Assembly: GCA_905178155.1 (NCBI GenBank)
Contig: CAJINV010000001.1
Span: 15,252,142 to 15,316,141 of the forward strand
Reading direction: 5' to 3'
DNA length: 64,000 nt
From: Amoebophrya sp. A120
Taxonomy: Eukaryota; Protista; Dinoflagellata
Every line of letters begins with the position of its first letter. The stretch's first letter is position 1. Made by a program: the position numbers and the translations under genes. Below are positions 2,072 through 61,930 of the stretch, piece by piece. The notes beneath the pieces are model-generated. The model had not been told where the DNA came from and ran no database searches. It saw only the letters and a list, made by a program, of their open reading frames with translations.

Positions 2072-3754
2072 ATGGCGAGCGCGACGGGGAACATCGTGGT
2101 AATCGAGCGCGACTCGCTCGACTATATGGAGAAGGAGCAGATCCAGTTCGACGACAGCGAGTACTACAACATGCGGGTCAACAAGCCACAAACGCTGCGG
2201 TTCGACCGATCGAAAATGGGGCGGTTGTTCGAGGAGATTTTTTTCGCTGGGTTCCTGCCGATGATTGTGTACTTCTCCAGCCTCTTCTTTCTGAGCACCA
2301 GCCTGCTGCGCCGCAATATCCCGAACGCCGGAACCTGGATCGCGCGGATTCTGGCGGTCTTGGTGGCGGTGGCGCTCGTTCTGTGGCCCGCCGGGTCACT
2401 GAAGAAGTCGACGTGGGACATACGGAAGACGAAGGTTATGGAATGGAAAGCAGTTACCTTCCTTTGGTACCAGCTGCTCTGCTTTCTCGTCGTCGGGATT
2501 TTCAGTATAGATTTTTTGGATGAAAGAAAGAATTTGACTGCTGTGCGCGCCTGTCCATTTCCAGTTTGTACTATTGCACGCTGTGACCACAGACAGATAC
2601 AAATTGATTCCTCCGCATTTCAGTTTGACACCGTGTTTACAGCGAAAGAACTTCAGGTATCGTCTACGCGGATACCATGTACACCGAGTACGTGATGCCG
2701 TACCAAAATTACTTGGACAAGAAGTGGATTGAGCAACCCATTTCTCCACTTCTCCAGTCGGGGCAGAACTTTCAAGATGCCGGCGTCGTGTCTTTCTCCG
2801 CAGACAGCTACATAGATCGGGCGCACAACGCCTGCTTTCGGTATTTTTGTGATGTTGTGTTGCTTGGCAGAGCTGTTTTGCTGTGACGCGGCTTTAACTA
2901 AATATTCCACTGTGTCGAACAAGTGCGTTCAATTCATTTCAAAATGCAAAACTCAACTTCTACTATCAGGGGCGCCGGCGTTTCGTATTGTGTCGTGCCC
3001 ATCGTGCAGGACACTGCGGGCACAGGCGACCGGACCCGGCTCCCCAGCAGCCCGACCGGGAGCTACGATTACTTCGCTGTGGGCACCGACTGCTGTAGTT
3101 GCCCGGGGACCGGCGATTTCCAGTGTGGCGATTGGGATTTTTCGGAGAGCATGGGTATCAAATGCAAAAATGTCTGGGTCTGGAAGATTGCGAGATTTGT
3201 CATGCTTGTCTGGGATGACCAGAAAGTTTGTGATGCGTGTCCAAGAAGAGAGCCTTTTGTCTGTCATGCAAAAACGCAGTTTGTCATGCGAAAAACGCAA
3301 TACAACGAACTGCAGACATTTCTCATGCTTGGGTGGGCATTGCAGAGCACTCACTATTCCCAACGCAGCATTACAAGTTTCCAGACCCAGACTGACATAT
3401 GTGCATTTGATAATGGGCGGACTTCGGCAACTCGAAATGGAGCAGCGAGCGTTTTACCAGCTGGCGGTCGAGCAGTGGGAAGCCGCGTGGAACAAAGACT
3501 CGAAGACGCCCTTGTTCTTCCACTGGAAGAACAAGCCCTACGTCCAAATGAAGTACCTTCGCGACGACTTCAGCACGAGCATCTTCATGACCACGCTCAC
3601 ACTGCTGGCGGTTTTGCTGTTTGTAGCCTGCGCGCAGAACCAGATCCGGAGCATGATCTACGAAAGCTATGAGCAAGAGTGGCTGTCCGCGGCCGCGAAT
3701 GCAAGGGAAAAGAAAGAAGCAGAACACGGGGAAAGGTCCTATGGCGCTGCTTGA
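2072..3754 (+). CDS. Multi-pass membrane protein of unknown function with a Cys-rich luminal domain
   Basis: Exons 2072-2504, 2657-2840, 2970-3155, 3418-3754. Introns are GT-AG at 2505-2656 and 2841-2969, plus a non-canonical intron at 3156-3417. The spliced frame is continuous (…GIFS/IVYADTMY…ACFR/GAGVSYCVVPI…FSESMG/GLRQLEMEQRAFY…). Several hydrophobic helices and the motif YDYFAVGTDCC…FQCGDW. Confidence 0.8.
3156..3412. mobile_element. TIR introner (non-canonical intron), family A copy 1
   Basis: TSD ATGGG at 3151-3155 and 3413-3417. Left end TATCAAATGCAAAAATGTCTGGGTCTGGAA; right end TTCCAGACCCAGACTGACATATGTGCATTTGATA. Removing 262 nt restores the frame. Homologous to 60753-61004. Confidence 0.92.
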
Positions 3755-4483
3755 TCACAACAATGCTACTCTACAAGTGAATTAGGAGCAGGACGATGAT
3801 GTAGTAAAAATGAACCCTCCTGGATGAATTGTGGGCCATTTTTTTGCCGTCACACATCCTACACCTGATTTTTTTCCCAGAAGTAAGTTTGAGCACGATG
3901 GATATGGAACACAAGCCATCGTGGCCAAAACTACTCCTGAACCTTAAACAAATGAACCTCGACGACTGGCAAAACTGTTGCAGATGAAAACCAAAACACC
4001 TCGCTGTACGATAGATCGCGCAGTGTTGTTGAAGACGGATCAGCAGCGTGCTTTCGTAGAAAAAACTGATCCAGCTTTTTGTTTGCAAAGTTCCACGACA
4101 GATACTAGATCTCAGCTTGATGCCATCACTGAATATTGGTTCTTACATACTTACACGGGAAATTTCGCGAGATGGAAGATCGACAAATTTTGGGTCGATC
4201 AGGCACTACCGCTAGCTTAGATCTTGGATCGCTTTTCGTCTTCTGATACTTGCTTTTATGGTTTTCGAAATCGTGATATTTCTCTTGCCTGCAGCCGCAG
4301 CGACAACACCAGCGATTTTTTAGCGACTCCCCATTGTATTGCGAATGTTTTTATGAACGTAAAGTTTTAATAGCACCTGCCGTGACTTCGCGCAGCCCCA
4401 GCTACGTGGGAGGTATGGTCTCGAATTTTCCCAACTCCACCAACCCCGACGACAGCGTCAGAAATAGTATTTAGTCAGCGAAA

Positions 4484-7400
4484 ATGCAGTGGGCCTCTCT
4501 TCGAGAGGAGCGCGTTTGCGACTTCCCGCGCGGAGCGGCGGGCCCGTATAATGGGCGTGCAGTTTCCTCCAGGCAGCTTGTCCTGCCACGCGGTGCGAAC
4601 GAGCGGATTCTGTCGCCAGCCAGAGGTATTGATGTGGACCTACTTCTGATAGATTCTAACGAGGCACTAAGTGAGATCTTGGTCGCGAATTTGATGATGT
4701 GCCGCTCAAGCAAGGTTTTTTCATTTTCTCACAATAAATGTAATCCTTCGCTAAACTGATGAATTTCAGCCTTCGAAGCCGGCCTTCTGATCGACGCTGG
4801 AAGTGGGTGTTACGCAGTGAGGTACGAGGGTACCACAGTTTGTCAAGAGGGTTTCGAAGTAGACGCTATCGAGGACCCGTTTCTGGAAGTGTACGATGTT
4901 AGTCCGGACGTCCGAAACCCCGGCAGCTACGTGCCGGGCACGGTGGTTTGGCGCATTGCCCTCCCCGACCCGCTGGCCACCGTGAATAACCGCAGCGACC
5001 AAAGCATTCACTACGCGATAGCAACCACCGGGGACGCGCTCTATTTGTACGTGCTTTTGACGACGTGCGTCGTTTACAAAATCCGGCTCACGCAGTCCCA
5101 GAGCCCGGGCTTCGAGCTGCAGCTGGTCAACGCCATGGAAATCGCCCAGCAGGACGCGTACAACGGGTTTCAGTCCTTTTCCGTGGCTGGCCCGAGCTGC
5201 GTGGTGTTCGGCACACTGGAGGGCTTGCGGGTTTGCAAGTTTGCGGAAGATGTGCTCCTGAGCGAGATGGACCAACAATTGAGATCATACACTGCATCCG
5301 GTGCGCAGTTGGCGCTGACGGACGGGGGGAACGAAGATGCAGCCATGAATACAGGTTCTTCTGACAACGAAGATCATGTGCTTGTCCCGCGGCTGCCGAA
5401 CGCGCCGCAGCACGACTTCCTGTGGTGCGAGGACAACAGGAAAGCGCAGAACCGGTTGACCAAGTTCGTCGGGTCAATTTTTTCCTCCTCCGCTCCGTCG
5501 CAAAAACCGCCTGACAGGAGTGTGCTCTTGACGCACACATACGACACGGATACTGAAGAAGTACTTGTGTACTCGGCGGACAACATTTTGCGCTTGGTGT
5601 CAACAAAGAGCGACGGTACTAGGGGCGACCCTGAGCATGTTCGGGTTCTTGCGGAGTGCACGGTCGACGAAGCTTTGAATGGGGAAGACCAGTTCTCGCT
5701 CCGCGTCGCGTCTCACAAGCACGCCCGCAAAGTCGTGATCGGCGCCAAGCAGCTGTTTCTGTTCGAGGTCCGGGAAGCGCATGAAATGGTAAATCATCGG
5801 TCTGGGAACACGAATTTGGCCAAGGTTTTACGGGCCAGGAGGGAAATCGTCACCACGCACACGGACCTGCTGCCATCCCACATCGCGCTCACGGAAACCT
5901 CGCTCTATGTTTGCTACACGCTGCTCGGAGATAGGACGGTATTTCTTACGTTTCTTGTAGCTTTTTTTTGTAAGAATTAGTGAGGCCTTTGCTGCTTTCA
6001 AACTGTTATTTGTGTCCACCTTATTTGATATTGGGGATCGGCCTCCTCCTAAATCAGAAAATGATACACGACTTGCAGGACGAGATTCTTCATGTAGACG
6101 CTTTTCCGGTGCAGGACCACGTAGACCTCGAGGACAGCGACGTTGTACACCCGGTCCGGTCCTGGACCCACTCGGACGACGCCGATTTCCGGGAGGAGGC
6201 GGAAGCCGTTGCCTACGCCGAATCGCCCGCGTTCCAGCAGTTCTTCGAGCAAGTGACTTCATTCCAAAGTGGTAACGAACCCGCGCAGCTGGCCGTGGGG
6301 GCGTCTGCGACCGAGTTCGTGCAGTTGTGGTGGGCGAGAAGAATTCTGAAACGAAATCGCTTTACCAGAAGCACGGTCGCGGAAGTGCTCCGGGACATGA
6401 AGTACGAGTCAAGCCGAGGGTTCAGCACCGGGAGCATGTCACCACCGGTACAGTGATGTGGTTATGTGTCTTACAACGTGAATGAAAGCGATCATAGTGA
6501 AGTGAGTATGCATTGATTCCGGCATGAAGCAACTTTCCAACAAATGCATTTCAGGTGGACGACTTTTCGTACGATGGTGGTCTCTCCCTCACCGCTGAGT
6601 CACTGGCTGCGTCCCTGCGACGCCTGCAAGAAAACTCGCGACAAGGGCAGCTGACGTTCTCCGAGGTTGCTTTTGAGTTCATCGAGAAGTGCCGGGATTA
6701 CGAGCGGAGCGGAAACACTACCCTCTCACTGACTCGTGTCCGCGCTTACAGGAGGGAGTGCGGGCAACACCACCGACTCCAGACGCATTTTGAGCCTGTG
6801 GCTCGGCTGACAGCAGCAGGCGTCTCGTTGTTGCGGCCCGTCGCGGACGAAGCGCTGCAGCAAGTCTGGACCACTTGCTCCACTTTCACGGCGCTTGGCG
6901 ACAAGAAATTCTACGCGTGCGAGGACGGCACACGTATGGGCGATTTGTCTCCCGGGGAAATGACCGGGGAGCGGGTGAGTCCCTGCTTGGTGCGCATGCT
7001 TCGGGCGGCGTTTGAACTCGCAGCATTCCTCAGGAAGCCGGAAACGCAGCCGGCGCTGGGCCTGCAGTTGTCCACAATAGCGTGCCTGCGACCGCAGTAC
7101 CTGGGGTCATTCCTCCAAGGGCTAAGGGACACGAATCTTCCCGAAGCAGCAGCAGCGGCCGTGAAAAAATCACTGGAAGGTATTTGACCACTTCGAAAAA
7201 GAGCCACTTCATGTTCATTCCCACTTGCAAGTAGATATGATGAGCTACATGGTGTTTTAATGTCTGGACTTCAGAGTGCCTCCAAAGGGAACAATGAAGA
7301 GCCAACACATAAAAGTAGATAGGGATAGCTGAAACTGCGAATTCACGACTGTACTAGTACCTTGTGTAGTCAAGAACGTCGAACGAAGTGATGAACCACC

Positions 7401-10400
7401 TGTGAATATGTCTGGACTTCTGAGCCTGTTTGGCACTGAAGAGACAGCACATAAATTGTAGATAGGGATAGCTGATATTTCTTGCTAGGCACGTAATACA
7501 GAAACATGTACACGCTCCTCTCCCTCGCTTTGTCGCGGTTTTGCGTCCGACAGGATGAATATGCATCGTCCTGAACGAAACTACTTTACGGTGCAACATT
7601 AACTATACAGAAATCGGCAACGTCGAAGAAGCCTGTGGGGAGTTACTTCGTCTGCTGCACCAGTCTGCAAACAATCCCGCTGTGCCCCAACCAGGGAACG
7701 CGACACGGCTACTCCCGCTGCGCCAGAATCCTCCGATGTCTTTTGCCCTGGGCGAGTGGCTGCAGGGGAGCATCGCGACCGCGGAGTTGGAAGTGACGAC
7801 GGACCTGATGACCAGTGTCCTTTTGTGGATGTACTACCACCAGTTCCCTTCTATCGGCGGCATGCATCTCGAAGATGACGACAATTTGATGGGGGGCGAC
7901 CAGGCAGCAGCGAGGGTGCGGCAATACTTGGAGCAGCAAGCCCCGTTCCAGCAGACGGTACAGCACTGCCTGGCCGAGCAGAGCGGAGCGACTCCGCCGG
8001 CACAGATGGGGAAGCCGTTCACGCTTCTCGATGAGTTTCTCTCGCTGAAGCATCTGCAAGCCGGGGCGACGGATATAATCATGTATGGAAACAAGAACAG
8101 CAACAGTCCCAGCAGGAGCCGGCCGTCAAATAGAGCTCAGCGGCCCATCTTCCAAAGATCGCCGCCGGGGTGTGGCTACGAAAGTCTGAACGCTGGCGTC
8201 TTACTAGCTCGCGCGGCGGTAAGCGCGGTGAAGACGTCGGTGCGAAGTGAGGGGGCGCAGGCACAGACGAGGTCGCTGTTTGACCAAATTGTGAACTACA
8301 CGAGCACTCTGCCGCTGCCACCAGACGCCCCGCGCGTGCCCTCCTCCTACTTCCAGGGCCGCGCCGTGCTCGAGGGTGCTGTCGCGGTGGGTGCGGACGA
8401 TGCTTTGGAGCTGGAAACGGCCGCGAGCGGCTTGTTTCAGACCGACGCGGAGAGCGGTTGCGTACATAACAACGGCATGTGGGCGGCAGTTCAGCAGGAG
8501 AATCCGAGCTGGGAGGCTTTGCTGGAGAGAACCGACAAATTGCTGATAGAAACAACTTCCTCGACCGCAACGAGTCCCGCCTTTGCTCCCGTCACCCCCT
8601 TGTTAAATTATTTTCTCCACGTCGCACAACTTTTTCTTGACTGCAACGAAATCCTGCACGCTTTGGATTTCATCACGAAGGCCGCAGAGCAAGCCGAGGA
8701 CTGTTGCGAACAGGCGTTTCACGACGCCGCGGCGCAGCTCCAGAATAGTGCGGACGGGGATCAAGAAGATGAAGAAGCAAAGCAGCACCGGGCGGCGGCC
8801 TCAGCCTCCGTGCTCGACGCGCTGGAAACCCTCGCGGGCCAGTGGTCCCTGCTTCCGTTCGACTTCACGCTCGAATACGGTTTATGGCAGGACGCGTTCT
8901 CCGTGTTGATCCGGCGCAAAAACACTTCCGAGTCCCCGGAAAACGCGAAGCTGGCGGAAAAACTTGCGCTCTCCCTGATGAACAAGGGCGCTTTGGATTA
9001 TTTGATCGAGTGGCTTCCCGACATGCCGGACTTCTACCAGGACGTGATTGAGAAGGTTCTCATACGCCACGAGCAGCACGACATCCTGTACACGCTCTAC
9101 CTCTCGCAGGGACGGTATCTGCAGGCCGCGTACGAGGCATTAACGTACATCCAAGCGCTGGAGAGAGAGGCAACCGAGAATCTGGTCAACGTCGCGCAAG
9201 AAGAACTGGACGTCGAAGACGTGATGAGTCCGACGGTGTTGGGTTTCGAAGGGGACGAGAACACCCGAGCAGGGTCGCTTGGTCTGCTCGAGCAAGGAGC
9301 AAATTCGGTTCCAGCGCAGAATCTCGGTCTCGGGCGACCGTTAGTTTACACGGAGTTCATGGGCACTTTCGCAACGTCCGATTCCAGAATAGCAGCGAAG
9401 ATGATGCAGCATAATTCATCCACGAAGAACCCGCAACATGATGCAGATCTTGTTGCCAAAGCGCGGCTGCTCGACAGGTTTTTGCGCGGCGCTGTGCCGG
9501 CGGATTTGCTGAAACAGCAGCAAAGGTCCATTTCCCGTGCGCTCATCGTGCTTCCGGAGTCTGGCTACGCACACGTGGACGTATCCCAAAGAACCGACGC
9601 GAAAGCACGTGTTCAGCACGGGTCAAAGGAGAAACGCGACGAAGCGTTACTCGCGGAAATCGTAGGTAGTGCTACCATTTCATCACCCGAACAACAACCC
9701 CTGTCGGAAGAGCAACAGCACGAGTTTGAGGAGATAAAACTCACCGAAGACGTGAAAATACTCTTCGACGAGGCGGAAAAACAGGCGGCTGAGACAGTGG
9801 TTACGGCGAAGGACTTGCACCGGTGGCGTTTGGTGCTAAAAGCGCGGCACTTCTTCGCGACCTGCCCGCTGCCTACTGTTGGGTACGATCAAGAGTTAGA
9901 CGCGCAAGTCATCGAGGAAATCCAGAGCACGAGGGAGTTGAGACAAGACACGCACAGCTCCTTTTCCTCCGTCCTACCGCTTCTGCACGATCCGCGGTAT
10001 TTGAGCGTGAAGCTCGCGCAGCAGGGCCTGGGAGTTGACGCGGTCAAGCTTTGCAAAAAGTTCGACGGAGTGGACATTTTCAAGTTCGCAATCAAACCTT
10101 TCTTGACCGTGGTGGTCCGGTGCGAGCGAGCGGAAAAGAGCCTGGTGACGACAAAACGATTCTTCTCGCAGCGAAGCCAAAACGACCAGCGGGTAAAACA
10201 GCAAGGACCGGACAATCTGACCGAGTTACTAGTGAAGCAGAACCGCGCGCGGGGCTGCTTGAGCGGTATGTTCCTGCACCACGATGGGCTGCAGTCCACG
10301 AAGCCGGCGACCCTGCAGAAGCACGGCGTGCTGAACCACATGAAATACACAACGAAAGCGCTGTGGCGGACAGCAGAGCAGCTGATCGTCAGCACCGGCA

Positions 10401-11132
10401 CGGCGCTGGAAGCGTCGGACTACCTCGTTTCCATCGGGGTGTACCCCTTGCCAGCGACGATCATGCAGTTCTTCCTGAAGTCCGAATACCAGAAAGATGT
10501 CAACCGCGCACCGGGCATGTTTTCCGAAGTGGAAAGAGATCAATTCTTCAGCGCCGACGCCAAGTCGCCCAGGAAAGTCCTGCAACTGGGCGAAAACAAA
10601 ATGACGCTGGGAGGAGGTGGGAGCTCTGGTTCCGCTGCGCCGTTTGTGGATGGACAAGAGGAGAAAACTGGCGACTTGACGAGCATGGAAGTAGAAGGAG
10701 ACGAGGACGAAGTCGATGCAACAGCCCGTTGGACCGACTTGCTCCGCATATTCCTCTACTACCAGCGATACGACGGAGTTCTGGAGCTGCTCGAAAAGAA
10801 GGTGAGTACCTAAGTAGATTTTAGCAAGCAGTTTTTCATCGATTCTCTATCTTATCACATTGTTCGTTGCTTTGTGCTTGCATTGCTCGACGCACGATGC
10901 GCTGATCGAAACGCTGACACTTTTATCTCCCATCTTCGATGAACAACAGGTTGAAAGGCGAGGCATCGCAGGCTTAGACGACGCGGAGTCGGTTCCAGTC
11001 GATTTGATTTTGCAGTGCAAACGCTCGCTGCAGCAACTCGTTGTGGACCAGGATACGACTCACCGCTTGGAAGACATCCAGGACTACATCGAGAGATTGG
11101 ATACCATCCTTGCGGATTTCAGGACCGACTGA
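4484..11132 (+). CDS. Nucleoporin Nup160/Nup120-like protein
   Basis: Exons 4484-4625, 4818-5938, 6058-6447, 6555-7179, 7611-10801, 10950-11132, all with GT-AG introns in matching phase. Beta-rich N-terminus followed by a helical region. HDILYTLYLSQGRYLQAAYEALTYIQALERE, GVYPLPATIMQFF and DLLRIFLYYQRYDGVLELL resemble the Nup160 C-terminal solenoid (recognised by eye). Confidence 0.65.
7233..7338 (+). ncRNA. Intronic box C/D snoRNA, copy 1 (dual guide)
   Basis: C box ATGATGA 7237-7243, D' CAGA 7272-7275, C' ATGAAGA 7294-7300, D CTGA 7329-7332. Guide GTAGATAGGGATAG pairs with conserved LSU CUGUCCCUAUCUAC. Guide ATGTCTGGACTT pairs with conserved SSU AGGUCCAGACAU. Ends are approximate. Confidence 0.85.
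7384..7480 (+). ncRNA. Intronic box C/D snoRNA, copy 2 (paralog of copy 1)
   Basis: C box GTGATGA 7388-7394, D' CTGA 7420-7423, C' CTGAAGA 7436-7442, D CTGA 7472-7475. Both guides are identical to copy 1 while the spacers have diverged. Confidence 0.85.
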
Positions 11133-11892
11133 GGGTGGACCATATTGCCTCCGTTGTAGAAACTGCGCAAGTTCCTCCAGCCCTGCACTTCTTCGCATAA
11201 GATTTGGGTGGTTGTAGTATCATGTATACAAAAAGAACAAAAACGACAAAAGGAAAGAAAGTACTAGAATCAAGGGACGAAGACGCGTCGTCCTTGCTCA
11301 CTCAGGCGAGTCATTCCAAGATTTTTTCCCGTCGCAGGATAATTGTTCTCGTCGTCTGCCCGAATTAAGGAAATAGCATACATCAGGAAGAAAATCCTTG
11401 GTTTTGACTGTACCTTGTAACGCAATGTTCGGGATCGATGGACCTATGACCAAGAAAGTATGAACCTACTGTCGTGATCGTGGGACGGGTCTGCATCCTG
11501 ATCGCATCTAGACTGTCGTGATCGTTGAGTAGCAATGGTTTGACAATTCGCTATCGCAATCGCATGTTGAAACATCGTCGTGGTTTGGTGAAGTCTCCAC
11601 AACGAGCTCTAAAGCCAATCTACAGGTCCCACAAGCACCTCCAAATGACTGAATTCAGAACAATACCTTGGCTATCGCTTTTGAATGTGATTGCCGATAG
11701 ACACAGACACCGCAGCTTGAAATTAGTACCATAAAGTTCTTAAAAAGCGTTTTTTGTTTGAAGAAAGCGGTTACTACGTACGTGATTCAACTGCATTATT
11801 GCACCAGAAACACGCACCCCTTTTCCTTTTGAAACTGCTCTTTCTCTATCCATTTCTTTCGTCTCGTTTCGCGCGATAAGCATACAGACAAG

Positions 11893-14235
11893 ATGCCGAC
11901 CCCGTTATTGTAAGGAAAAATCCCCCCTCCCCATATCGAAAACGAAATTTCTGATGCTGTATTTGAGGTCACAAATCGACTTGTAATGCTAGAAGGCCAA
12001 GAGCCGCAGTCGTGGCCTCGTTTGCAGGCAATTTGTCGTGCTGTTTCCCGCTCTCAGCTGCCTCCTATCATGCTGAAGATGCAAGGCTTGACCACGGCGC
12101 CCAGCACTACAGTCCGCATCTTTTCCCGTGTAGCATGACAAAGCTGATTTGTGACAACAAATCTGCATCACAGATTTCCGTTTTGATATGGGGAGGGGGG
12201 ATTTTTCCTTTTGATACCCGTACTTCAAGTTCACCCGGTTTTGGCAGACCATCGACCCGGTCATTGCCAATGTGCAAATTCCAAAAGAGGTGCGGATCGA
12301 AAACCGACGACTCGGTACGCTGTACCTGTTTTTGATGCTCGGAGCCAGCACCTGGGTGCTGTACAATTTCATCTATTCCAAAGCATGGAACATGGAAGAA
12401 ACCCCGGTGCCGGGTATCATCGAGCTCTGGTCACAGTTGCCCTCAAACCTCACGGGGAACTCCGCAAATGAAAAGCACTGCGCCGACATGAACTACTACG
12501 CTTATGATTGGTCGTCCACCTGGACCTACCGGGCAGAAAAGTGCATGATTTTGCCGCCCGGCGAAAACGTGCACAAGATGGGCAACAAAATGTACATCCC
12601 CACCTACGTCCAGGACAGCTATCAGGTTCCAAATGAATGTTGTTTCTTGCTCATTCTCATTTTTCACTAAAAGATAGATGTGTTGGGCAGGCATCTGATG
12701 TGATTCTATTCTAGTAGCCTACAAGGACCTGCATGGCTTCGATTAAAGGATTTCTTTTTGAAAGCTTGTGAGAGCGCAAACCTAACTACTGCACACGACA
12801 GGTCGGTGGCTCAACGAATTGGACCTTGAATTATTTTGCGCAAAACGTCGATGAGATGTTTATTTACTTCAACCACGGTTACGAAGTGCACGACAAGGAT
12901 GAAGTGAACCGCGGGCGGGACAAGTTCCAGGCGACGAAGGGAATCGTCGGGGAGCAGGCCGAAACGATTCACGGCGAGAAGGGGCAGCTGCTGACGATAA
13001 TCCAGGACGAGGGTGGGAAGCGGGAGTGTATCGTTTCCGGGAAATCGCATTGGTACCCGAAGGACACGAAGAACGGGATTAACGGGAAGCTCAGGGAGTG
13101 GCTGGCCTGCGGCGGCGTTTCCCTGGACAGCGTCAACAACGACGTGAAAAGCGGGTCACCGGAAGAAACGGGAATCCCGACATTTCGGATGTCCGGCTTG
13201 AAGCTGCACTTCGATTTGACCTACCACAACACGTACGGCGGTTCGTGGGAGACGCACCGCGAGAAGGACTGGGAGGGGGTCGTCTGCTACATCCGGGTGC
13301 GCGTCGGCCCCATGTGGAACAGCAACCAGTACGCTAGCCACACCGTCGTGTACAATGGCGTGTACCCGAACACCAACGACCCGGCAAAAGCCGACCCGCA
13401 GTCCGCTTACCGCTACCGCTACCAATACGGTGTGGGTTTGGAAATTCAAGCCGCCGGGGCGTTTGCCTTCCTGGACTACCAGGCGCTCATCACCGGGTTG
13501 GTCAACGCACTCGTGCTGCTGGCGTTGCCGACCTTGGTCGTGAAGTTCGTCGCCTTGTATCTCGTCGGTCCGTCTTCCACGGTGTACGCCAATGTGCAAC
13601 GGGAGCCGCTGGACTTCAACACGGCCATTTACGGGTCCTGCGCGCGGAAAATCATCGCCATGCAGACGTTCAAACAGTTGCTGCAGCAGCACGGCGCGAC
13701 GGAGGAGGGTTTGACCAAGGAGCACTTGCGCAACATGCTGCTGAAGGCCATGCACCAGTGCGTGGTCGACGGCAAACTGGACGAGGAGGCCATCGGGTTG
13801 ATCGCCGAGGCGATGTTGCAGGGCATGGATCAAGACGGGGACGCGCTGATAGAGCTGAACGAGTTTGTCGAGACCTGCAGCGTTGGGGAAAACGTCACCT
13901 CGACGGAAATGGGCCGACTGTTTGACCGCAAGCGGCAGCCGGGTTATCTCGAAAGTCTGTTAACCGACTCGAAAATGAAGGCCATGCTGGCCCACGCGCA
14001 GGGGAAGGGGGCCGGGGAGAGCATTTACGCCAAAAAGAAGCGGTCGTCTAGAAGTCGGGGCAGCTCGCCGGGGGGTGGTTCTGCTCGGAGCAGCAGCCCA
14101 CCGGCGGCGGGGAAGGCGGCGATTCTGGCGGAGGGCGAGGAGGCACTGCGGGCAACGGCGGTACCGTACCCCTCAGAAGGCTTCGATACGGCACACGAAC
14201 TTGAATTCGCAGATGTCGTGTCTTCAAGGGGCTGA
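11893..14235 (+). CDS. P2X receptor-like ion channel with C-terminal EF-hand
   Basis: Exons 11893-11905, 12222-12625, 12802-14235, with an introner at 11906-12221 and a GT-AG intron at 12626-12801. The N-terminus VQIPKEVRIENRRLGTLYLFLML matches the P2X pre-TM1/TM1 region. YQYGVGLEIQAAGAFAFLDYQALITGLVNALVLL matches the P2X YG…G…TM2 region. EF-hand loop DQDGDALIELNE. Confidence 0.8.
11906..12216. mobile_element. TIR introner (non-canonical intron), family B
   Basis: TSD CCCGT at 11901-11905 and 12217-12221. Left end TATTGTAAGGAAAAATCCCCCCTCCCCATATC; right end GATATGGGGAGGGGGGATTTTTCCTTTTGATA. Pairing extends inward (GTCACAAATC/GATTTGTGAC). Removing 316 nt joins MPTP to YFKFTRFWQ. Confidence 0.92.
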
Positions 14236-15152
14236 AGACGAACAAGTTGTTTTTCTGTACTTCGTCGAGTTGATTTGGTAGATTTCAGAATGGAGACAGG
14301 AACTCAAAGTAAAGAGCGATACGATAGTAAATTACTTCCGGACCACCCTCTCGTGTAGAAATTGGAGTTTGAATTCGAGCAGTGTCACTATGCCGAAAGA
14401 AGTACAAAATTGATTACAAGATTGTTGATATTTCATTGTACAGAAAAGTAGCAGCCACAGCACTTTTTGTTTCTTGCGAAGATTTTCTTCTGACGACAAC
14501 GAATATGTAAATAAATCGGACACTTGATGCGATGAAAGGTAAGGTTTTCCAGCTCCTGCTTAGATAGAAGTTGAGCACACTAGTCACCGTGGGGTGAACG
14601 ATGAGTTTGTGCAAGTGACAGTGTTTCCTGAAATGCTCGGCCGTTCTTCGTAGCGGAGACTAGACTAAGTACATCAATACCTGTGTTGGCTTTCAACAGG
14701 GTTAGCCTTACCAGATCCACTTTTTTGAACTAGGCAAAGATCACGTCATGCACGATCACATTGGCTGTGGTTTGTCATTGTCTTTATGGTGATCGGGGGA
14801 CAAACTATCTCTATCAACAGCAGCATATTGGCGGTCGTTCCTTTGTTGTGTCTTTCGTGATCCCATACTTGTTCTTGTGCGTTTTGCATCCGGACAGCAG
14901 TATTTTTGCAATCGCAACAAGGTTGATCCTAATGAGATGGATCGTTGACCCGTTCTCTTTTAAACCCTTTACTGGGTAACATCATCATCATCAGATCAAC
15001 CATGGATTACATGTTAATATGTGAGTATTACATGTGAAAAGCGACCCGCACAGATGGAAAACATTGGAGTAGGGAATTTCCCCGAAGCTGCCAAGTTTCT
15101 CATCCCCGGTGCTCGATGTTGCTAGTGCTACGGTACAGTCACAATATAATAT

Positions 15153-17522
15153 TTGAAGGAGTGTGTATCTGTCTCGTCTGTTGAATCTGACAACGGAGGT
15201 AGTGCTGCTGCGGAAAGTAAGATGAAGAACTCAGTACGAACCAGATATCGGCCACTTCACAGTGGCTCAGCTGCGTTAAAGACCAGAACGCACTCACTTT
15301 TGGTCGGAAGTCAGCACAGCAAGTTGGAGCAACGACTCACGCCATCATCTCTCTGGACGGCAAAGCGATTTCAGAGCAAGGTCGGGTTTGCACTGCCGGC
15401 AGATTTCGACTTCAACGAGGCTACCGCAGATGTGCAGGAGTATGCACAAAATTCACCTTCGGGCGATCGGCTTTCACGTCCAGAAGTACCCGACCGAGCT
15501 CCGCTGGACACGGGTACAGCAGATAATGCAGTACTTGGCAGAAAGGATAAGGACGACCACAAGAGTCGGCGAGTTTTTCAATCGACACGGACAGGGGCGT
15601 CAACTACGCCTGCTGCTTGTGCAACCGATATCGAAAAAGATATCAATCGCGAGGAAGTAGTACCAGAATCACGAGCTGCGCCCGATGAAGTAGCTGCTGA
15701 AACTCACGAGGACGGGAAGGTCGAGGACGTGGAGCAATTGAAGGAGGAAGTTCGTACCTTGTTCAAAAACTTGCGCGGTCAGGCTCTTGACAAGCTGGAG
15801 GACTTTTCGCCGGTCCACCTTTTTTCGCTCGCCTGGGCCTTTTCCACCGCGAGAATTCTCGATGATGAGCTGTACAACCGGTTGTCTCAGCGGGCGCTGC
15901 TGCTCGCGCTCGAAATGGACGAAAAGTGGTTACCGGGGGTGTTTTTGCCGGGAAAGAAGGCGGGTGAGCACGTGGCATCTGCATCTACGTCGCAAGTACC
16001 AAAGTCGCAGCTTCTAGCTGGATGCGAAGAAACAAGCGAAGCTGCAGCGTGCCAGGACGAGACGCATGTCGTAAACAAACACATAAACACTTTCGACCGA
16101 GTTGCAGATGCCGCGGCGCTCTACCACCGGCACGATGACAAGACTGTCGTAAACCAAAACTTCGGGGACTGGCACGGGACAAAGATGACCATCGTGAAGG
16201 AGTCGCCGCACTGGATCGCGCTGCACAAAACCATCAAGTGGGTGGTCAACCAGCAAGGGGACGGGAGTGCGGCGGACGACACGGATTTGGCGGACGCGGA
16301 ACAGGCAGAGATGCTGAATCAGAACGAAGCTGCACAGGATGGTACGGCAGCAGGCACCGCTCTAGTCAGGCCGAAATCCAAGGCCCCGTCAGTCCATCAC
16401 TGGGTGCGGAAAAAATACGGGTACGCATACCCGATTTGCAACCGTGCGGACTTCTCCTACGGAATTCTGCACCGCTTAGACCACGAGACGTCCGGCGCTT
16501 TGCTCTGTGCGAAAACCTGGCTCGCCTACTACTGGCTGCGGCTGCAGTGGTGTGCCGTGAAGGTGCGGAAGCAGTACGTGGTTTTGTGCCACGGCCACGT
16601 CAATCGGAATGTGAAGGAATGCAAGGGGCGGATCAAGGTTTTGAAGCGCATCGTCGGCGGAAAAAAGACCTGTCTTGCCAGCATTGAGAAGACCGGAAAG
16701 CCGGCGAAAACGGGGATTGATGTGCTCGGGCACTTCTGGCTCCCGCGACCGAGAAGCAGCAGAAACTTTGTTCCGGCCGGGATGAGAAGTCCTGTCTTGC
16801 AGGTGACCGACAGTCTGCAGCCGGGACGACAAATCGTAAATGATGCAGGGGACGGTACAGGCACTGGAGGTTTCGACGTCGAGGAAGATCATGACAACTG
16901 TGCAGACGAAGTAGAAAACGGAGAAATAAACACGACGAATATGATGCCTGTGTCGCTCGTTCGCTGCCGGCTGTTCACGGGGCGAACCCACCAGATCAGG
17001 GTTCACCTGTCGAAGGAGTTGAACCACCCGATCTTTGGCGATAAGAAGTACAGCTCGAGCGAACGACTGAACGAAGACAACGCACTTTGGAAAGAGACTT
17101 TGTACAAGCCAAAAATCTCTTCCACCCCTGCTGTTGTGTCGGAGGAAATTGCGGAAAGTGAAGAACTACCAGGGAAATCTTTCTCCACCGACCCTCAAGA
17201 GGAACTGAAACGTGTCGAGAGTACTGCCTTTGCAGACGCGCAAGTAACAGGCAGTCGCGACGAGCAGCAACAAGGCGCGAAGAAAGACCCATCGGTGGAG
17301 CAGACCCGGTGGTGGGGAAGGATGTTCTTGCACACACACAGCCTGGAATTTGACGACGTCCCGAGGATAGACGAAACAACCGGAAAAACTGTCTGCGATC
17401 GCCAAGAAGTGTACGTGCCGGTCTCCGCAGAGTTGCAAGCGTTGCTGCGTCGAGCGAAACCAGTGGCAGAAGCAGATGAAAACGCGTTGGCAGGATGGAT
17501 TGAAACAGACGTACCTCCGTGA
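15153..17522 (+). CDS. RluA-family RNA pseudouridine synthase (true 5' end unresolved)
   Basis: Motifs LHRLDHETSGALL (catalytic Asp), VRKQYVVL, LFTGRTHQIRVHL, HPIFGDKKY and MFLHTHSLEF. An in-frame stop lies just upstream, so the start is either ATG 15222 or an upstream exon. Confidence 0.88.
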   Translation: MKECVSVSSVESDNGGSAAAESKMKNSVRTRYRPLHSGSAALKTRTHSLLVGSQHSKLEQRLTPSSLWTAKRFQSKVGFALPADFDFNEATADVQEYAQNSPSGDRLSRPEVPDRAPLDTGTADNAVLGRKDKDDHKSRRVFQSTRTGASTTPAACATDIEKDINREEVVPESRAAPDEVAAETHEDGKVEDVEQLKEEVRTLFKNLRGQALDKLEDFSPVHLFSLAWAFSTARILDDELYNRLSQRALLLALEMDEKWLPGVFLPGKKAGEHVASASTSQVPKSQLLAGCEETSEAAACQDETHVVNKHINTFDRVADAAALYHRHDDKTVVNQNFGDWHGTKMTIVKESPHWIALHKTIKWVVNQQGDGSAADDTDLADAEQAEMLNQNEAAQDGTAAGTALVRPKSKAPSVHHWVRKKYGYAYPICNRADFSYGILHRLDHETSGALLCAKTWLAYYWLRLQWCAVKVRKQYVVLCHGHVNRNVKECKGRIKVLKRIVGGKKTCLASIEKTGKPAKTGIDVLGHFWLPRPRSSRNFVPAGMRSPVLQVTDSLQPGRQIVNDAGDGTGTGGFDVEEDHDNCADEVENGEINTTNMMPVSLVRCRLFTGRTHQIRVHLSKELNHPIFGDKKYSSSERLNEDNALWKETLYKPKISSTPAVVSEEIAESEELPGKSFSTDPQEELKRVESTAFADAQVTGSRDEQQQGAKKDPSVEQTRWWGRMFLHTHSLEFDDVPRIDETTGKTVCDRQEVYVPVSAELQALLRRAKPVAEADENALAGWIETDVPP

Positions 17523-17905
17523 ATGAGTTTTACTGGCAAATATTCTCAGATCTTGGCCGAGGGCTTTTGCGGGAACGCACTACACTAGAAAAAATAACGA
17601 TCCAAATCTGGTCCTGGTCAGAAAAGAAGAAGAACCAACGACAAAAGCAGTCATTTGGTACTAGAGTGGATCGTGCTAGTTTTGTTCGGCTCCTAGTTGC
17701 TCGTTCATGCTCTCTGCCTATTTTGAAGGTCCTGAAATATGTTCTTGAGCTGGAGGTAGAATTTTTCGGGATGAATTCTGCAGTGAAAGTAGTTGTGCCA
17801 GATGAGAGCAGGACGTTGTAGCACTTAAGTACACGGCACTACCAGCTTAGATAGAAAGTAGAAGTGTCCATCTGTTCGTTCGAGCACACAGTAGCTCCCA
17901 TAACA

Positions 17906-19327: not shown

Positions 19328-20169
19328 GTGTGCGTGACCACGTGTACTGCAAAGGGCGACCATCATAAATAAAATGAACTTTTGCTTTCGACGACGGCGA
19401 CCAAGCGACAGACAACGTTGTGTCAATGGGCAAGGCCAAGATCATATGTTTCGCGCTACAGAAAACGACTCAACCGCTAGTGTAAAGCTTTTTCGCATGA
19501 CTCTCGTGAAGCAGTGCCTATTGCTGAATCCTATAACGAATCCGTTGTTCGGTCAGTCAAGAAGTGTTGGCTTCAACTTTCTCAGCTGCGCATCAGTCAG
19601 TCGCATCCTCAATAATCCAAGTTCGTAATAGAAGCAATCGGTACATTCGCCCTTAGTATAGCAGCTTGTGAGTTGTGCTAGTCGGTAAAAAACAGGTAGA
19701 ATTAAAAATGTATGACGTGAAGAGACTTGACTCGTGAAGATGCTGATGTTGTTCTCGGTCTCGGCACAGATACGACATCGAGTCGGTTGTGATTGGAATT
19801 CGTACGAAAAAAACAGAAACTTTCGGTCGTATGATGTCGTTTCGTAGACATAGTCGTAGCGTCAAAATTCAACACTTCGGCCTGGCTCAGGCTCTCGTGC
19901 GCAAGTTTGTCGTTCCTGTTGCTTCTTCGAGAAAGAAGCTTTCGTCTCGTTTGGTTTCGTCAACTACTACGCTAGGACTTAAGAATAGACCGGCTGATGC
20001 TCAATACGCGGCTTATCTCCTGTAGAAACTCGACGAATACAACCAGGAATTTATCCCACTCCATTTTATCCCCTTTCGAACGAATTTCACGCAGTACTTC
20101 TCGTTTATTTACGGTTTGTACCTGTAGTACTGTTCACGACTGAATGAAAACTGTCAGTTCTCAGACACT

Positions 20170-23100
20170 ATGGAAAATACCGCCCCTGGGGAGAAGAAGG
20201 AAGCGCAACTCGCCGAGCCGCTTCTGACCGCTGCCGTTGACCCAGCCACGTTACAACTGCAACAACAGCAATTGCTGCAGCAACAGCAACTGTTCCAGCA
20301 ACCCCCAGCAGCGAGCGCGTATACTCCGCTTGCAACTACAGCCAACCCAGCCCAATTCCTTCCGCAACCCGAGGGAGAGGCACCTCCTCCCAACGTGGTA
20401 AGCGAGGGCGAAAAGCAAGTTCTCTCAGTTCCGGTTCTTCCAACGAAGTTCCTGGTCACCCCGACCGTACCTCCGACTGCAGCCGACGTGACTACAACTG
20501 GTCCTGTAGCAGCTGCGCCACAAATTACGTCAAGTCCGGCTGCTCCGGCACCTCCTGCAGTTCCAACCTACGCGACCGACCCAGCCAGTGCGCTGCCTGG
20601 CGTCCAAGCTGCACCGGTATCGCCGGACTACTTTCACCAGGCACAGCCCATCGGGTTCAGAGTCACTAAAGGCAGCGTAAGTGGCGCGACCACCCCGAGA
20701 GCCGGGTTTTCCGTGGATTCCCCCTTCACCCTTGCGGTTCCCTCGCTAGACGTTCGCACCGGCGGGGCACTGGTGCGTCAAGTTCAAGGCGTCATAGAAC
20801 CGCACTGGGCACTGGATCTACCGATCCTGACATGTATTGAATGTTACCTGATCTTTTTGGTTCAGAGGATGCCATTGTCAGTGAATTTATATATGCAAGT
20901 AGTGGACTTAGCGTTAGGCGGTAGCTGACGAGCTCGATCACTAACGCATACGCAAAATGTCGCAAAAGGTTTTTTCTTGTAAACATCATCGAAAAATAAT
21001 CAAACTGTTCTATCACAGCACGTCGTCGCAGCAGATCTCGAAGTCTCGGTAAGGAGGTTAGTGTGAGCAAGAGTCCCAGCACCGTCGGAATGCAACCAGA
21101 CGGACGCGACCTTGGGCAAACCGAAAGAGACCTTGTGCGTGCGAGAAATCTCGCGCAGTTTTTCCTCGCCGAGCGCAACGGTATTTTGGCGGAAAGGAAC
21201 GAGCCGGTGCCTGATTTCTTCCAGCGCGGCCCCTACTCCGCTCGCAGCGCCCAGCCCGGAGGCATGTACAACTACGGCTTGAACCCTAGACTTTACAGCC
21301 CACCGGTGCCGCTGCCGGCACAGGCGGACCCGATGGTGGGGCTAAAGACGGCACAGGACTACTACACCGCCTACCAGCCGCTAGGGCTTCCCCCGTCTCC
21401 CCCGGTCGCCGGTATGATGCAACCGGCGCCACAGATGGGACAAGCACAAGCCGCACCACAACCCGTGGCCGCACCTACACCCGACGTTGCAGTTGCGAGT
21501 TCGAGTGCTGTTCCCGCCGTTTCATCACAAGACATGCCCGGTAGCAGCGGACAAGCACCCGCGATGGGTATGGACGTCGCAAGTGCCACACCGTACATGA
21601 ATATAAATAATCTCCCAGCACCAGCAGCTCCTGCGGATCAGGCGAAACTTCCCGATCCGCGCGCGACGCAGCAGATCGGATTCAATCCGCTTCCCGTAGC
21701 GCAGCAGATGCCGCCGCAGTACTATCCCCCCGTCGCGGCGTACCAATACCCGCAGATGTCGCCCCCCCAAGCCAACATGCTTCAGCAGCAGCAGGGGTAC
21801 GCACCGCCGTCGGCCCCCATGTTCGCGAAGACCTCCATGCAGCAACCACTCATGCAGCAGCAGCCGCAGCAGGCCGCGCAAGCCACAGCCAAAGCGCTCA
21901 AGACCGGTCCCCCGCCGGCGCCGCCAGGCAGTGTGGAGATGACGGAACCCAAGACGGCGGAGGGCGCGGTCGAGAAGAAGCACGCGAAAAAGAAAGCCAA
22001 CGTGCACGCGGTTCCCGGCAAGGGCCGTGGGGGCGCGCTGGGCGCGCTGATGATGGTCGCTTCGGTAGTTGCCGCGGAAGAGGACGACGAGGACGACGGG
22101 CAGCCCAAGCAGTCGTTTATGGAATTGATGGAGACGATCGAGCTGCCCTTCATCATCCGGGTACCGCTGAACTACATCATCTTGCCCATCGTCGACGCGT
22201 TGTTGTGGATATCCTGTGCAAAAGTATCGTACTCGTATTGTCATCATGCATTACAAATCCTGTTCTTAAGGCAAATTAGCATTGCAAATTTTAATTCTCA
22301 TGCTGAGGAAATTTGTAATGCATTTATACGAGTGCGATACATACTTTTGCACTGCATAGTGGATTTGGTTCACGATTTTATGGCGCATCATCAAGTTGAT
22401 CCTGATCGGCCCCTGCTGGCTGATCTACCACGGGGTTTGCTTTTGCCTCGGCGGAGGCGACGAGCTGATTTACTGCGTGTACGGGGTCGCCTTAGCGTTT
22501 TTTGGCGGGCAGTACCACACCGCAACCGCCGCGATTGCCGCGTTCAACATGGGCGGGGGCGGCGAGATTTTGGAACACTTCGCTGCGATCCGCGACAACA
22601 TCAAGTGGATCGCGCGGCAGACTACGATGGACGACGAGGAGGACCTGGATGGGGACGGGGTCGCGGACGTGCACCAAATCTCCAACCGGGAGTTCGTGAA
22701 GCGGAAAATTCTCCTCTTCCTCGAGCACTGCGAACCCGGGCGGCTCACCGACGCGATCATGGCCACGTACGGAGGTACGGTGGGCGTGTTGCTTACCGTC
22801 AACTGCGCGGCCGCCGCTTTCACTAGTCTCGGCGTGTCTATGGCCATGCTCTCGGGAAAAATCGCCGCCTACACACTAACGCCACTCATCCTCAAGTGGA
22901 TGCAGGGAAGATACAAGTACATAACTTAACATTATTATCTTGGGAGTGCTGGAGTCTCTGCTGACAGTACTAACGTGCACAACTGTATTTATTTGTATTG
23001 AGCAGAAGATGCTGAAGAAATAAGAATAGTTGTTTTGTTCTGACGGTAAAATCAAAAAAAAAATTGCAAAAAAAATCACAAATACTCTGAAACAGGCAAT

Positions 23101-27600: not shown

Positions 27601-27893
27601 TGTGCGACGACGTCGTGAAGTTGTGTTCGCTGGAGGGAGATTGCGACGAGGAGGCGTTCGTGCCGTTCAAGGGCGTACCCGTGGACATGTTCCCGCACAC
27701 CGTGCACTTGGAGATGATCTTGTACCTGGAAAGGTACAAACCAGCCCGGCACGACCAAATCTGGCAGGGAGAACCGCTGTGGGTGCAGAAAATGAAGGCG
27801 AGAGAGGAAGCAGAACGACGGGCGGGAGTCGCGGCTGAGCCCGATGCGAAAAGACGGAAGAAAGGCGCCGAGGTGGAGAGGGACGAGAAGTGA
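24670..27893 (+). CDS. TRM2: tRNA (uracil-5-)-methyltransferase, TRM2/TrmA family
   Basis: Exons 24670-26926 and 27109-27893 (GT-AG). Motifs GYRNKCEL, GFWRLVMCR, SFFQTNS, LDVCSGVGTIG, IVDPPRTGL, LVYVSCNP, VDMFPHTVHLE. Confidence 0.93.
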
Positions 27894-31500: not shown

Positions 31501-31521
31501 AACAATTGGAATTGCACTTTG

Positions 31522-32073: not shown

Positions 32074-32154
32074 ACATCGAGTTCGAGTTGTACTTCGTAT
32101 AAAATCGTCATCGTCAAAAATCAAGTCCAAGCCAAAGTTCTTTAGCTGGAATAG

Positions 32155-33076: not shown

Positions 33077-33214
33077 GTAGTGGAACAAAAGTGATGAATG
33101 CGAAAGTGAATGGATGAATGGCTGCGCTTACTTGAAACGAACTCGACGACTTCGTCACATGTTGCTTTAGTATGTAGTGAGGTCACGAACGTTCTAACCT
33201 AGCGATCTTTTTGA

Positions 33215-58039: not shown

Positions 58040-61000
58040 ATGTCGGGCGCTGTTTCCAGCCCCACGTTCTCCGCCGGAACGGGCGACACGGCTAACATGC
58101 ATGGGGCGCGGATGAAGATTCCGCTGAGTTGGTTTGACGCGAGCATTGAGAAGCAGCAGTATGTTCGTGGCAACATCGGTGGGACGACATCAAAAACGCC
58201 TTCGTCCTCCTCTTCCGCACCCAATTCCCGATCAAACTCGAAGACCTTGCTGCCCGGCGGCCCGGACAACGGTGCCGACCAGGACTACCAGCAGGGCCTA
58301 GAATTACTGCAGGGGAGAAGTGTGGTGGCTAACCCGCGGCTGGCGGCCTTCTACTTCCGGCGAGCAAGCGGGAAGGGACACTCTCGAGCGGAGTACATTA
58401 TGGCCATGCTGCACAAGACCGGCTACGAGGGGATTTTGCCCAGTGCCCGCAAGTACCTGTTCTTCCTGCAGCGGTCTGCACGGCATGGGCTCGCGGTGGC
58501 ACAGCTCGAACTAGGTACTGAGCTTTTCGGGCGTGTGATGTTCGTGTCTGTTGGAAGAGAGGTCATTTGGAGCAAAACACTATCTGTCTCATTTGTGCTT
58601 CGTTGGTTCGGGTTCGTTTGGTTGCAGTTACAACAAACTCGTTTTCATCCACAGGACTTCTGTATCTTCGCGGCTTTCTGCTCCCGAAGGACGTGAATCG
58701 GGGGAAGCGACTGCTGCGCAGGGCAGCCCAGTGTGGCGAAGTCGGCGCCTGGAAGCACCTGGCTCTGTCCGCCACGGGGGAGGAGAGTAGTTCCTGGTGG
58801 GAGAAGGCTGCAAAACAAGGGGACGCTGAGGCACTGTATGTGCTCGCGATGCGCGGTCTCAACCAGTACCCGGACGCCACTTCGCCGCCGATGTCTTCGT
58901 CTCAGGCCATTGAGCAGTTGAAGACGGCAGCGAACAAACAATGGCCTGAGGCGTTGCACGCGCTTGGTACTTCTTGTTCTTTGTACTTGTTGGTCTGAGG
59001 TGCTTTGTCGTGTTGGCCACCAGGAGCATCGAGCTAGTTATCTGTTATAGTACTTTATTGCAGGTTCAGTTTCTGCTTCTGGTCGGTCGCACACAACATG
59101 CCGAGCCATCGTCAGTTTCTCGGAGAGTGGATTTTTTTGACACCACTTTAACAGGTGAGATGTATCGCGGTGTGGCGCATCCGGCGTACTCCTACCGTCT
59201 GAAAGAGCACATGATCGGGCAGCTTTTGCGTCGCGACTGCGTGAAGTCCGCCCGCTACCTCGCGCTTGCCTGCGACGAGCTCTTAAACCGCCGCAACCAG
59301 CTGGAAAAGGAAGCCCGCGCGTACGAAGAGAAGCTGCTCACCTGCATGGGTGACTTTGACCAGGCAATCTCCTCGCAACTCCTGCTCGCCCGCGTTGTCA
59401 ACCGGTGGCGACACACGGCCACCCGGCGCAAAGCGCTGCTCCGTCGGTTGATCGCTAAGCGGGAGACCACTTACATCCGCCCAGCGTGGAAGATCTGGCA
59501 GACCAGCGTTTTGCGCCGCTTTCTCGACCTGCGCGTCGGGTTTGAGGAACCGTTTGAGTTCGGGAAAACGCTCGGCCTCTGCTTCGCGCAGTGGGCCTTC
59601 CGCGCGGTGGTCGTGCCGAAGAAGATGACGAAGATCGTGCGCGCGAACGCGAGAAAGAAAAACTTGCGGAAGGCGCTGCAGTCCTGGCGCGCGTGCACGA
59701 TCCGCCGGCGCATGGCGGTGTTTGTACTTGTGGAAGTGTTGAAGCAGAACTTGCGGAAAAAGTGCACAACTTTGCTCCCCTCCCAGGAGGAACGAAATTA
59801 CCGTCGGGGCACGAAATTGTTGGAAAAGATGCTGCGGCGCAAACTGTACCAGAGTGCGTGCTCAGCGTGGCGGTTGACCACTGTCCAGCGCCAGACGAAC
59901 GCGCGATTCGTGAATGAGGTTCGCACACTCTCCGACGAGAATCGCGTGCTCCAGCAGGACCTGCGCACGACCGCCCAGCGCCTGGCCGAACTCGAGCGCG
60001 AGGCGGCGGCTTGGAAAAAGCGGTACGACGAGGAACATACGCTGAACCAGCAGCTGCTGCAGTCGGGGCTATCGGGCGGCGCCTACAACCGGAAGTCGAC
60101 CGATACCACGGATTTTGTGCGCCAAGGCTCTCCAAACGCCGCACGGGAATCGCAACTGCGATTGCTCAACAGTGCGGGCGGCGGGAGCAGGAGCGCGTCG
60201 CCGGGACAAATTATGCCAATGTCCAGCGCGCAGGCGCACCTGGAACCGACGACGTTATTCCATCAAAGCACGGGAACAAACCTCTCCTTCAACCAAATCC
60301 CGACTACTACGCAACAAGGCAACACGACGCTGCTCCGGACGAGCAGGGGGCTTCTCGGGGGCATGGCTTCGAGCGCCAGCACCTCCCGAACAAACAGTAA
60401 AAAGGCTTCGCCTTTATCTGCAACCGGCACGACAGATCCGCACGAGATTCTCGGCAGATCAGCTGGCGGGCAGCTCTTCCTAGCGGAGGACGCGGGCGGC
60501 AGTGCTTTCCTCAACAGTGCACAGCACCAACAAGGAGCGACATCGTCAAGCCATGAGATGGTCTACCCTTCGCGAAGATCCTCCTGGTCCCCGAAGGCCG
60601 TGTTTCGGCCGGTGTCCAGAACCGCGGGCTTGGAACATCGAGAAGAGGACAGTGCAGTGGCCCAAGAACAGCAGCTTTGCGGGACTGGAACAGAACAGCC
60701 CTCGCCGATGAAGCGGCTGATGCAGCGGAAAATCATGTCCAGTCAGGAACGATATGCAATGCAAAAATGTCTGGGTCTGGAAGAATGCATGTTTGTCATG
60801 CTTGTCTGGCATGACTCTTGAATCTGTCATGCACGTTACCCAGGAGCTCTGTTTTTCTGTGATGCAGGAACGCAGTTTGTCATGCAGAAAAGGCAACACC
60901 TAGAAGCTCAGAAACTTGTCATGCTGAGCGAGCATTTGTGGCCTCATCATGAGACGCCACCCAGCATCACAAGTTTCCAGACCCAGACATTTTTACATTT

Positions 61001-61930
61001 GATAAACGACTGAAGAGCATCCTGGAACAACCTGTAGACACGGACGACGAGATTCTAGCCTCAACCTCCCTGGAAGGAGAACAGGAAAACGAGGATTCTT
61101 CCGCCACGCTGGAATCCAGTTCATTAGTCCACGTAAAAAAGACCGCGACCGGGAAGACGACTGCGTCTGCCCGTCCTGTTGGAGCAACAACTAGGCAGCA
61201 GACGATGTCGAAAAGGGAAACACAAGAAATCGATCCCATGATGAGGATTAGCACGGGCAAGTTTCCGCGCCGTGTGGTCTCGAGAAGCCGAAGCTCAACA
61301 GGTTTCACCACCGCTGCAGCGTCCTCGACTGGGGCCTCCCGAGTTCGTTTTTCGGACCAGATTAGTCGAAGCTCGACCATGTCCACAGCCTCGAGGTTTG
61401 ATGGGACAGCGTTAACGGCCAAGACGCGCGCGGCCTTGGCCAGCACCCTCTCCACGACCGGTGTGCGGCGGACCAACTCAACCGCCTCAACCTTCGCGCC
61501 CTCCAGTACCGCAAGCACTACTTTTTTGCAGCGTACTAGCGCCAGCAACAGGAGAAGCCAAAACCTGCCGGGGAGGCATCTACGGTTCAGCAGTATGAAC
61601 AACCCGGGCCGCGCCTCTACTTCCTCCATGGTAAATAACAGACGCTCGTCGGCGCAAAGCGGTGCGGCAACGGGCGGCGCGTTGTCTCGCCCGGGGGCAG
61701 CGAGTGATGAGGTGCTACTGGATGATCCGTCGGAACTCTCTTCTGTGGTGGAAGTGCTGGCCTCCGCCGCAGTGGGAAGGGGGGTCAACGCCGGGGCTTT
61801 GCCCAATTCTGCAGTGGCCGCCACCACAGCAAATTCCGCAACCAATAACTTTCTCGACCAGTCTCCGCTCGAATCTGTGGACGTCAGGAGAAATTTGTGG
61901 CAGACGCCGCAGCGGACAATCTACTACTAA
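58040..61930 (+). CDS. Sel1-repeat protein with coiled-coil and Ser/Thr-rich tail
   Basis: Exons 58040-58514, 58655-58966, 59155-60752, 61010-61930. Sel1 repeats AQLELGLLYLRG…AAQCG, WWEKAAKQGDAEALY and ALHALGEMYRG. The last junction is the introner at 60753-61009 (SSQER/LKSILEQ). Confidence 0.8.
60753..61004. mobile_element. TIR introner (non-canonical intron), family A copy 2
   Basis: TSD AACGA at 60748-60752 and 61005-61009. Left end TATGCAATGCAAAAATGTCTGGGTCTGGAA; right end TTCCAGACCCAGACATTTTTACATTTGATA. Removing 257 nt fuses the 58974 ORF in frame to the 61205 ORF. Confidence 0.92.

Follow-up and report, generated by a model that had tools for sequence, protein, structure and literature searches.

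Our analysis indicates, with high probability, that exons of Amoebophrya sp. A120 carry short non-coding inverted-repeat transposons, which are removed together with one copy of a flanking direct repeat, likely guided by their paired ends and not by GT-AG signals. Four such elements lie in the window, by which we mean the whole 64,000-nucleotide stretch of A120 DNA that was analysed. The four are A120 introner elements of Farhat et al. 2021 (PMC7789003) and were already known as a class.

A first-pass annotation, made from the letters alone, had placed the elements inside coding exons, between perfect 5-bp direct repeats, and had given lengths of 262, 316, 154 and 257 nt for each element plus one repeat. 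We rechecked the coordinates in the window. The elements, their ends, their repeats and the removed lengths are all as claimed (Table 1). At all four sites, removing the element with one repeat leaves an open frame on the + strand, and sliding the junction across the repeat gives no GT-AG, GC-AG or AT-AC in any register, again as claimed. For element 4, frame analysis finds open frames on both sides that join in frame.

Table 1. Positions of the introner elements and GT-AG introns in the window.
Feature	Positions	Strand	Details
Introner element 1	3156..3412	.	257 nt; ATGGG repeats at 3151-3155 and 3413-3417; large family of 240-293 nt
Introner element 2	11906..12216	.	311 nt; CCCGT repeats at 11901-11905 and 12217-12221
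Introner element 3	22210..22358	.	149 nt family; GTGGA repeats at 22205-22209 and 22359-22363
Introner element 4	60753..61004	.	252 nt, family of element 1; AACGA repeats at 60748-60752 and 61005-61009
GT-AG intron, host gene 1	2841..2969	+	Skipped in runs X3 and X6; control for spliced transcripts
GT-AG intron, host gene 2	12626..12801	+	From register analysis and contig joins
GT-AG intron, upstream in host gene 3	20834..21018	+	From register analysis and contig joins

The strict end pattern has exactly four matches in the 64-kb window, each of at most 400 nt. In 100 Markov simulations the same size class gave a mean of 0.03 matches and a maximum of 1, so the window elements are beyond chance. 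A relaxed scan of the window found no further convincing element. Predicted hairpin folds have z values of −5.1, −9.5, −5.1 and −4.2 for elements 1 to 4, and the inverted repeats of all four extend well past 9 nt. Among the five bases that follow TAT, 13/20 are Watson-Crick paired, 2/20 are G-U and 5/20 are unpaired; in element 1 all five are paired. Elements 1 and 4 are 74% identical and form one family. Hence, the four elements represent three independent families.

The traits of introners are present here: TAT-N7-AAA ends, 5-bp repeats, removal at borders other than GT-AG, a predicted hairpin fold and repeated families. An exact scan for TAT-N7-AAA matched every left end and, on the right, the ends of elements 2, 3 and 4; the right end of element 1 reads TATCAAATGCACA and lies outside the exact motif. 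The elements had been interpreted as non-canonical introns that derive from transposons and are of the type found in Amoebophrya, and their ends, their 5-bp repeats and an annotated protein (P0001, see below) agree. The TAT start and the 5-bp repeats are not new, both being in print earlier (PMC7789003; PMC12130899). In the available text of PMC7789003, the A120 inverted repeats open with TAT, continue with seven bases of lower conservation and then have three or more A, and the direct repeats measure 3-5 nt at the exon/intron border (5 bp in the legend of Fig. S19). That text counts 29,850 repeated introns in A120, gives a mean length of 240 nt for non-canonical introns, describes a hairpin and calls the mechanism unknown. 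We see no difference in kind between the introners described there and the elements studied here. Our additions are the 5-bp length in family-anchored copies, the near-free target, the use of both orientations, filled and empty alleles, and the independence of terminal inverted repeat (TIR) positions 4, 5 and 7; the figures of PMC7789003 may show part of this.

Gozashti et al. 2025 (PMC12130899) list, among 40 of their 58 A120 rows, TIR families of 252-260, 149 and about 305 nt. In the same rows the A120 families have hundreds of copies, mostly at non-canonical sites. These families resemble the window elements by size only, not by sequence, as far as the available part of that source goes. 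One row, fam38, reads 'Ginger; 5-bp TSD, TA/TA Termini', a lead towards a Ginger-type transposon with an integrase-related transposase, and the main text describes the same family as without Ginger homology or typical termini. Among papers surveyed by title and start of abstract, with paywalled work outside the scope, none resolves the mechanism of removal.

Transcripts bear directly on removal. Four sequencing runs were compared with window positions 2800-22700, which cover elements 1-3. Run X1 is DNA; runs X3 and X6 were taken as RNA by guess and from their skipped GT-AG introns, no run recorded as RNA being listed for the stretch. The fourth, raw-read run X9, reached 2 of 30 bins of this region and, at locus L050 described below, contributed 11 reads. 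The X3 and X6 pieces listed have no letter differences from the window. Their skipping of GT-AG introns and their match to the window are what spliced transcripts of the window genotype would show. Contigs of both join 3150 to 3413 at element 1 and 11900 to 12217 at element 2. At element 3, X3 contigs join 22204 to 22359, and no X6 joint is among those listed. None of the three joints occurs in X1. Each transcript join lacks the element and exactly one repeat (3/3 sites compared), the joints being positionally ambiguous over 5, 5 and 6 letters, and the joined contigs in the RNA-type runs reach a depth of 200. The proposed removal of element plus one repeat, across non-GT-AG borders, therefore holds at the RNA level at all three sites. 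With the element and one repeat gone from the mRNA, the protein is unchanged.

Gene 2 provides a separate case. It starts at 11893 and encodes 616 aa, with element 2 directly after the third codon. The only protein returned for the gene 2 exon query was P0001, labelled Amoebophrya sp. A120 and 100% identical. P0001 is the translation of window gene 2 minus element 2 with one repeat, and minus one GT-AG intron. Thus, the element 2 intron is already annotated. Pfam assigned no family to any of the eight window exon pieces.

Relatives were sought in metagenome contigs by using the end of elements 1 and 4 as the probe, which gave at least 157 loci (L001-L157), with about 550 estimated; the 80 loci listed have one common assembly prefix. 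A finder that required TAT…ATA and 5 bp, and not G9 (the G at position +9 of an element end), yielded 163 elements from a strain other than the window's. Sufficient flank was present for 156, and 87 passed a coding-strand call, made by a model that was correct at 83/86 held-out window positions. All four window elements have relatives at 85-95% identity. That they are repeated in families across the genome also shows in run depth, with a summed contig depth of more than 30,000 in bins holding elements, compared with about 45 in the flanks. In family-anchored copies whose partner end is good, the repeat is a perfect 5 bp in 101/115 and has at most one mismatch in 111/115; mismatched repeats number 14/115, and repeats of 6-8 bp were found in none of the 115. 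The partner end starts with TAT in 110 of these copies. When the TAT requirement was dropped from the scan, TAT/TAT with 5 bp still predominated (145 matches), the remaining classes being mostly internal sub-stems. Relative to the coding strand, the elements lie in mixed orientations (24 same, 19 opposite, 25 unclear).

If retained, 82/87 of the oriented relatives would place an in-frame stop in the host gene. No GT/GC/GA/GG-AG or AT-AC register is possible for 66/87. Such near-canonical registers are available in 21/87, somewhat above the 15% expected, and a GT/GC-AG register in 8/87, compared with 6% by chance; this excess counts against a reading wholly free of splice signals. Searches with the element-end patterns gave no match in the viral contigs or prokaryote genomes searched. 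Two side observations concern this sample. In 44/87 coding-called copies, the first base of the repeat falls on codon position 3 (p = 0.002), a bias that weak target composition partly reproduces (36-42% expected) and from which we draw no mechanism. The 9-nt end variants of L001-L157 form a small set in which left and right ends are combined independently, which suggests frequent end exchange between copies.

We propose the following path from insertion to removal. On insertion, which in the relatives shows little preference for sequence, 5 bp of the target are duplicated. The insertion would be catalysed by a DDE integrase-like transposase supplied in trans, which would recognise the terminal TAT together with a motif further in; end positions 4, 5 and 7 would act as a free spacer for this putative enzyme. 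The transcript would then fold end to end as a hairpin. The cuts would be set by distance from the TAT/ATA base, irrespective of repeat sequence or orientation, giving the mRNA seen at elements 1-3. For the putative catalyst, we give a modified spliceosome lacking U1 roughly an even chance, and a separate cut-and-ligate system a chance somewhat short of even.

An RNA endonuclease and ligase independent of the spliceosome, cutting at the hairpin base with a 5-nt stagger and releasing linear or circular unbranched RNA, is a credible alternative, if not the favoured one. It departs from our preferred explanation in the catalyst step alone. The near-symmetric elements, found in both orientations, and a repeat that has no constant dinucleotide would both suit such an enzyme. 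U1 snRNA is undetected in A120 according to the available text of PMC7789003, and euglenids offer a precedent with circular, non-lariat products (PMC11282704, available text). However, the same two sources also report that A120 has nearly all spliceosomal proteins together with U2, U4, U5 and U6 (PMC7789003), and that tunicate non-canonical introns are apparently excised by the spliceosome (PMC11282704).

The likeness to euglenids extends further. The available texts of PMC12501133 and PMC11282704 describe nonconventional introns with non-GT-AG borders and paired ends, often flanked by repeats, which are likely derived from MITEs and coexist with spliceosomal introns. In euglenids the signature reads N3CDG...CHGN5-6|R, the exon starting with a purine (PMC12501133), whereas the elements here show TAT...ATA ends, have a repeat fixed at 5 bp and follow no purine rule, and euglenids are a lineage unrelated to Amoebophrya. 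Introns of Fritillaria borealis share MITE derivation, TIR and TSD, and non-GT-AG borders (PMC11282704). They differ in their preference for AG-AC/AG-AT at the borders and for TAC as exon context, and in being apparently spliceosomal, according to the available part of the same source. Tentatively, Amoebophrya may splice mRNA by a second system, independent of the spliceosome, which reads the TAT...ATA hairpin base, in either orientation and at any target, with a 5-nt stagger. If so, each transposon insertion would be an instant silent intron, and the elements could go on spreading between near-identical strains.

The transcript joins could also arise if elements were precisely excised from DNA, like ciliate IESs, in certain nuclei or life stages, the excised copies then serving as templates for transcription. 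The transposon-like ends, and two insertions at locus L050 that are empty in DNA run X1, would fit such excision. We consider it highly unlikely. In X1, introns and spacers are covered at a depth of about 45. At the joints of elements 1-3 the depth is 0, and contigs terminate within the elements at depth 42-45. No empty joint at these sites was found among the X1 DNA contigs, which drop rare variants, so that infrequent excision from DNA or inexact splicing would escape notice. The ciliate-like excision that the first-pass annotation offered as an alternative is, in wholesale form, not seen in X1, where only filled sites occur at 3/3 window sites. Element sequence is present in the RNA-type runs too.

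The empty sites at L050 are better explained by a strain difference. This locus carries four elements in one frame; none has G4 (G at repeat position 4), one is without G9 and one is reversed. Removing the four leaves a single open frame. L050 positions 419-653 and 701-952 are absent from one X1 contig, of single-copy depth (44), in which one copy of each 5-mer remains. An exon difference at L050:984 is common to X1, X3 and X6, and X3 and X6 come from the empty-site genotype at this locus. The filled and empty sites are read as an insertion polymorphism between near-identical strains, and the insertion as recent. Since the empty sites hold a single 5-bp copy, the 5-bp repeats are shown directly, in these relatives, to be true target-site duplications. 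The L050 gene may encode an acyl-CoA oxidase, judging from a motif and from a sole, non-significant hit (E = 1); Pfam returned nothing significant for the three locus pieces.

Some copies are longer, at 457-631 nt (L050:1015-1645, L049:571-1051, L080:231-726 and L026:1014-1470). Six-frame reading of these four found no open frame of transposase length. Their middle segments are unrelated. One is an A-rich tandem array, and the middle of the L050 copy is present in about three copies in X1.

A stricter reading of the ends is very improbable. It would require both G4 and G(+9), and would have the intron begin at the repeat G, with G-N-TAT serving as a relaxed form of the spliceosomal 5' site. 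Each requirement has some basis in the window. All four window repeats have G at position 4 on the coding strand, as first described; by chance, about 8% of sets of four 5-mers would have an invariant column somewhere. As a rule, however, G4 fails: it occurs in 31/87 oriented copies, against 30% G in coding sequence, and in only 85/163 relatives when either orientation is allowed. The G-N-TAT register that had been suggested is unsupported, since G4 is at background level in the relatives. Short spacers between two elements in X1 violate G4 in both orientations in 6/8 cases, judged by eye and with their exon status open to doubt. The L050 elements are also contrary to the strict grammar. They have no G4, and one has no G9, and their removal still gives one open frame; the removal joins coincide with X3 and X6 contigs, themselves of the empty-site genotype.

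The G(+9)/C(−9) pair fared similarly. It is present at all eight window ends, and its universality does not extend to the relatives, where it is found at 149/163 and 147/163 ends of a sample enriched for G9. Three small families lack G9 at both ends. In the large family, G9 is present at 239/240 ends, although for most copies the search pattern had itself imposed G9 at one end or both. G(+9) is family-specific. Across the 163 relatives the grammar reduces to TAT…ATA and 5 bp. Conversely, the proposal that the bases after TAT form a free spacer stands. Large-family positions 4, 5 and 7 match between the ends at 0.61, 0.63 and 0.38, compared with 0.63, 0.67 and 0.39 if independent. Because these positions vary independently between ends, pairing is not selected there, a point that counts against removal guided by paired ends.

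A strong hairpin with 5-nt direct repeats is a textbook substrate for reverse-transcriptase template switching, and all of the RNA evidence presumably derives from cDNA; nevertheless, it is very doubtful that the joins are such switches across a repeat-flanked hairpin in mRNA that keeps the element, because retained elements would inactivate genes (the four removed lengths are not multiples of three, and stops are frequent in the relatives) and the joined contig is the form listed, at the depth given above.

More than 60% of introns in Amoebophrya are excised without GT-AG signals. The options for how this happens are narrowed by three observations: the repeat needs no fixed base, G9 is not universal, and both orientations occur in coding sequence. 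The copies with mismatched repeats and the filled/empty strain pair offer two handles on the splice register.

Other features of the window were noted. Long open frames across positions 1-64000 number 30 on the + strand (39 kb) and 14 on the − strand (10 kb), consistent with a co-oriented gene cluster. A CAGGT 5-nt repeat at 12623-12627 and 12799-12803, around a GT-AG intron, is the usual splice consensus, with no inverted repeat listed. Positions 14955-14993 hold 39 nt ending in CAT repeats; this sequence is multi-copy in X1, occurs in hundreds of reads of run X9 with unrelated flanks, and may be one end of a further repeat family. The segments 27803-28405 and 31627-33101 are partly duplicated, at 72-88% identity. 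Between 30410 and 30722, in an AT-rich stretch, a 19-nt motif occurs four times at spacings of 65, 65 and 164 nt.
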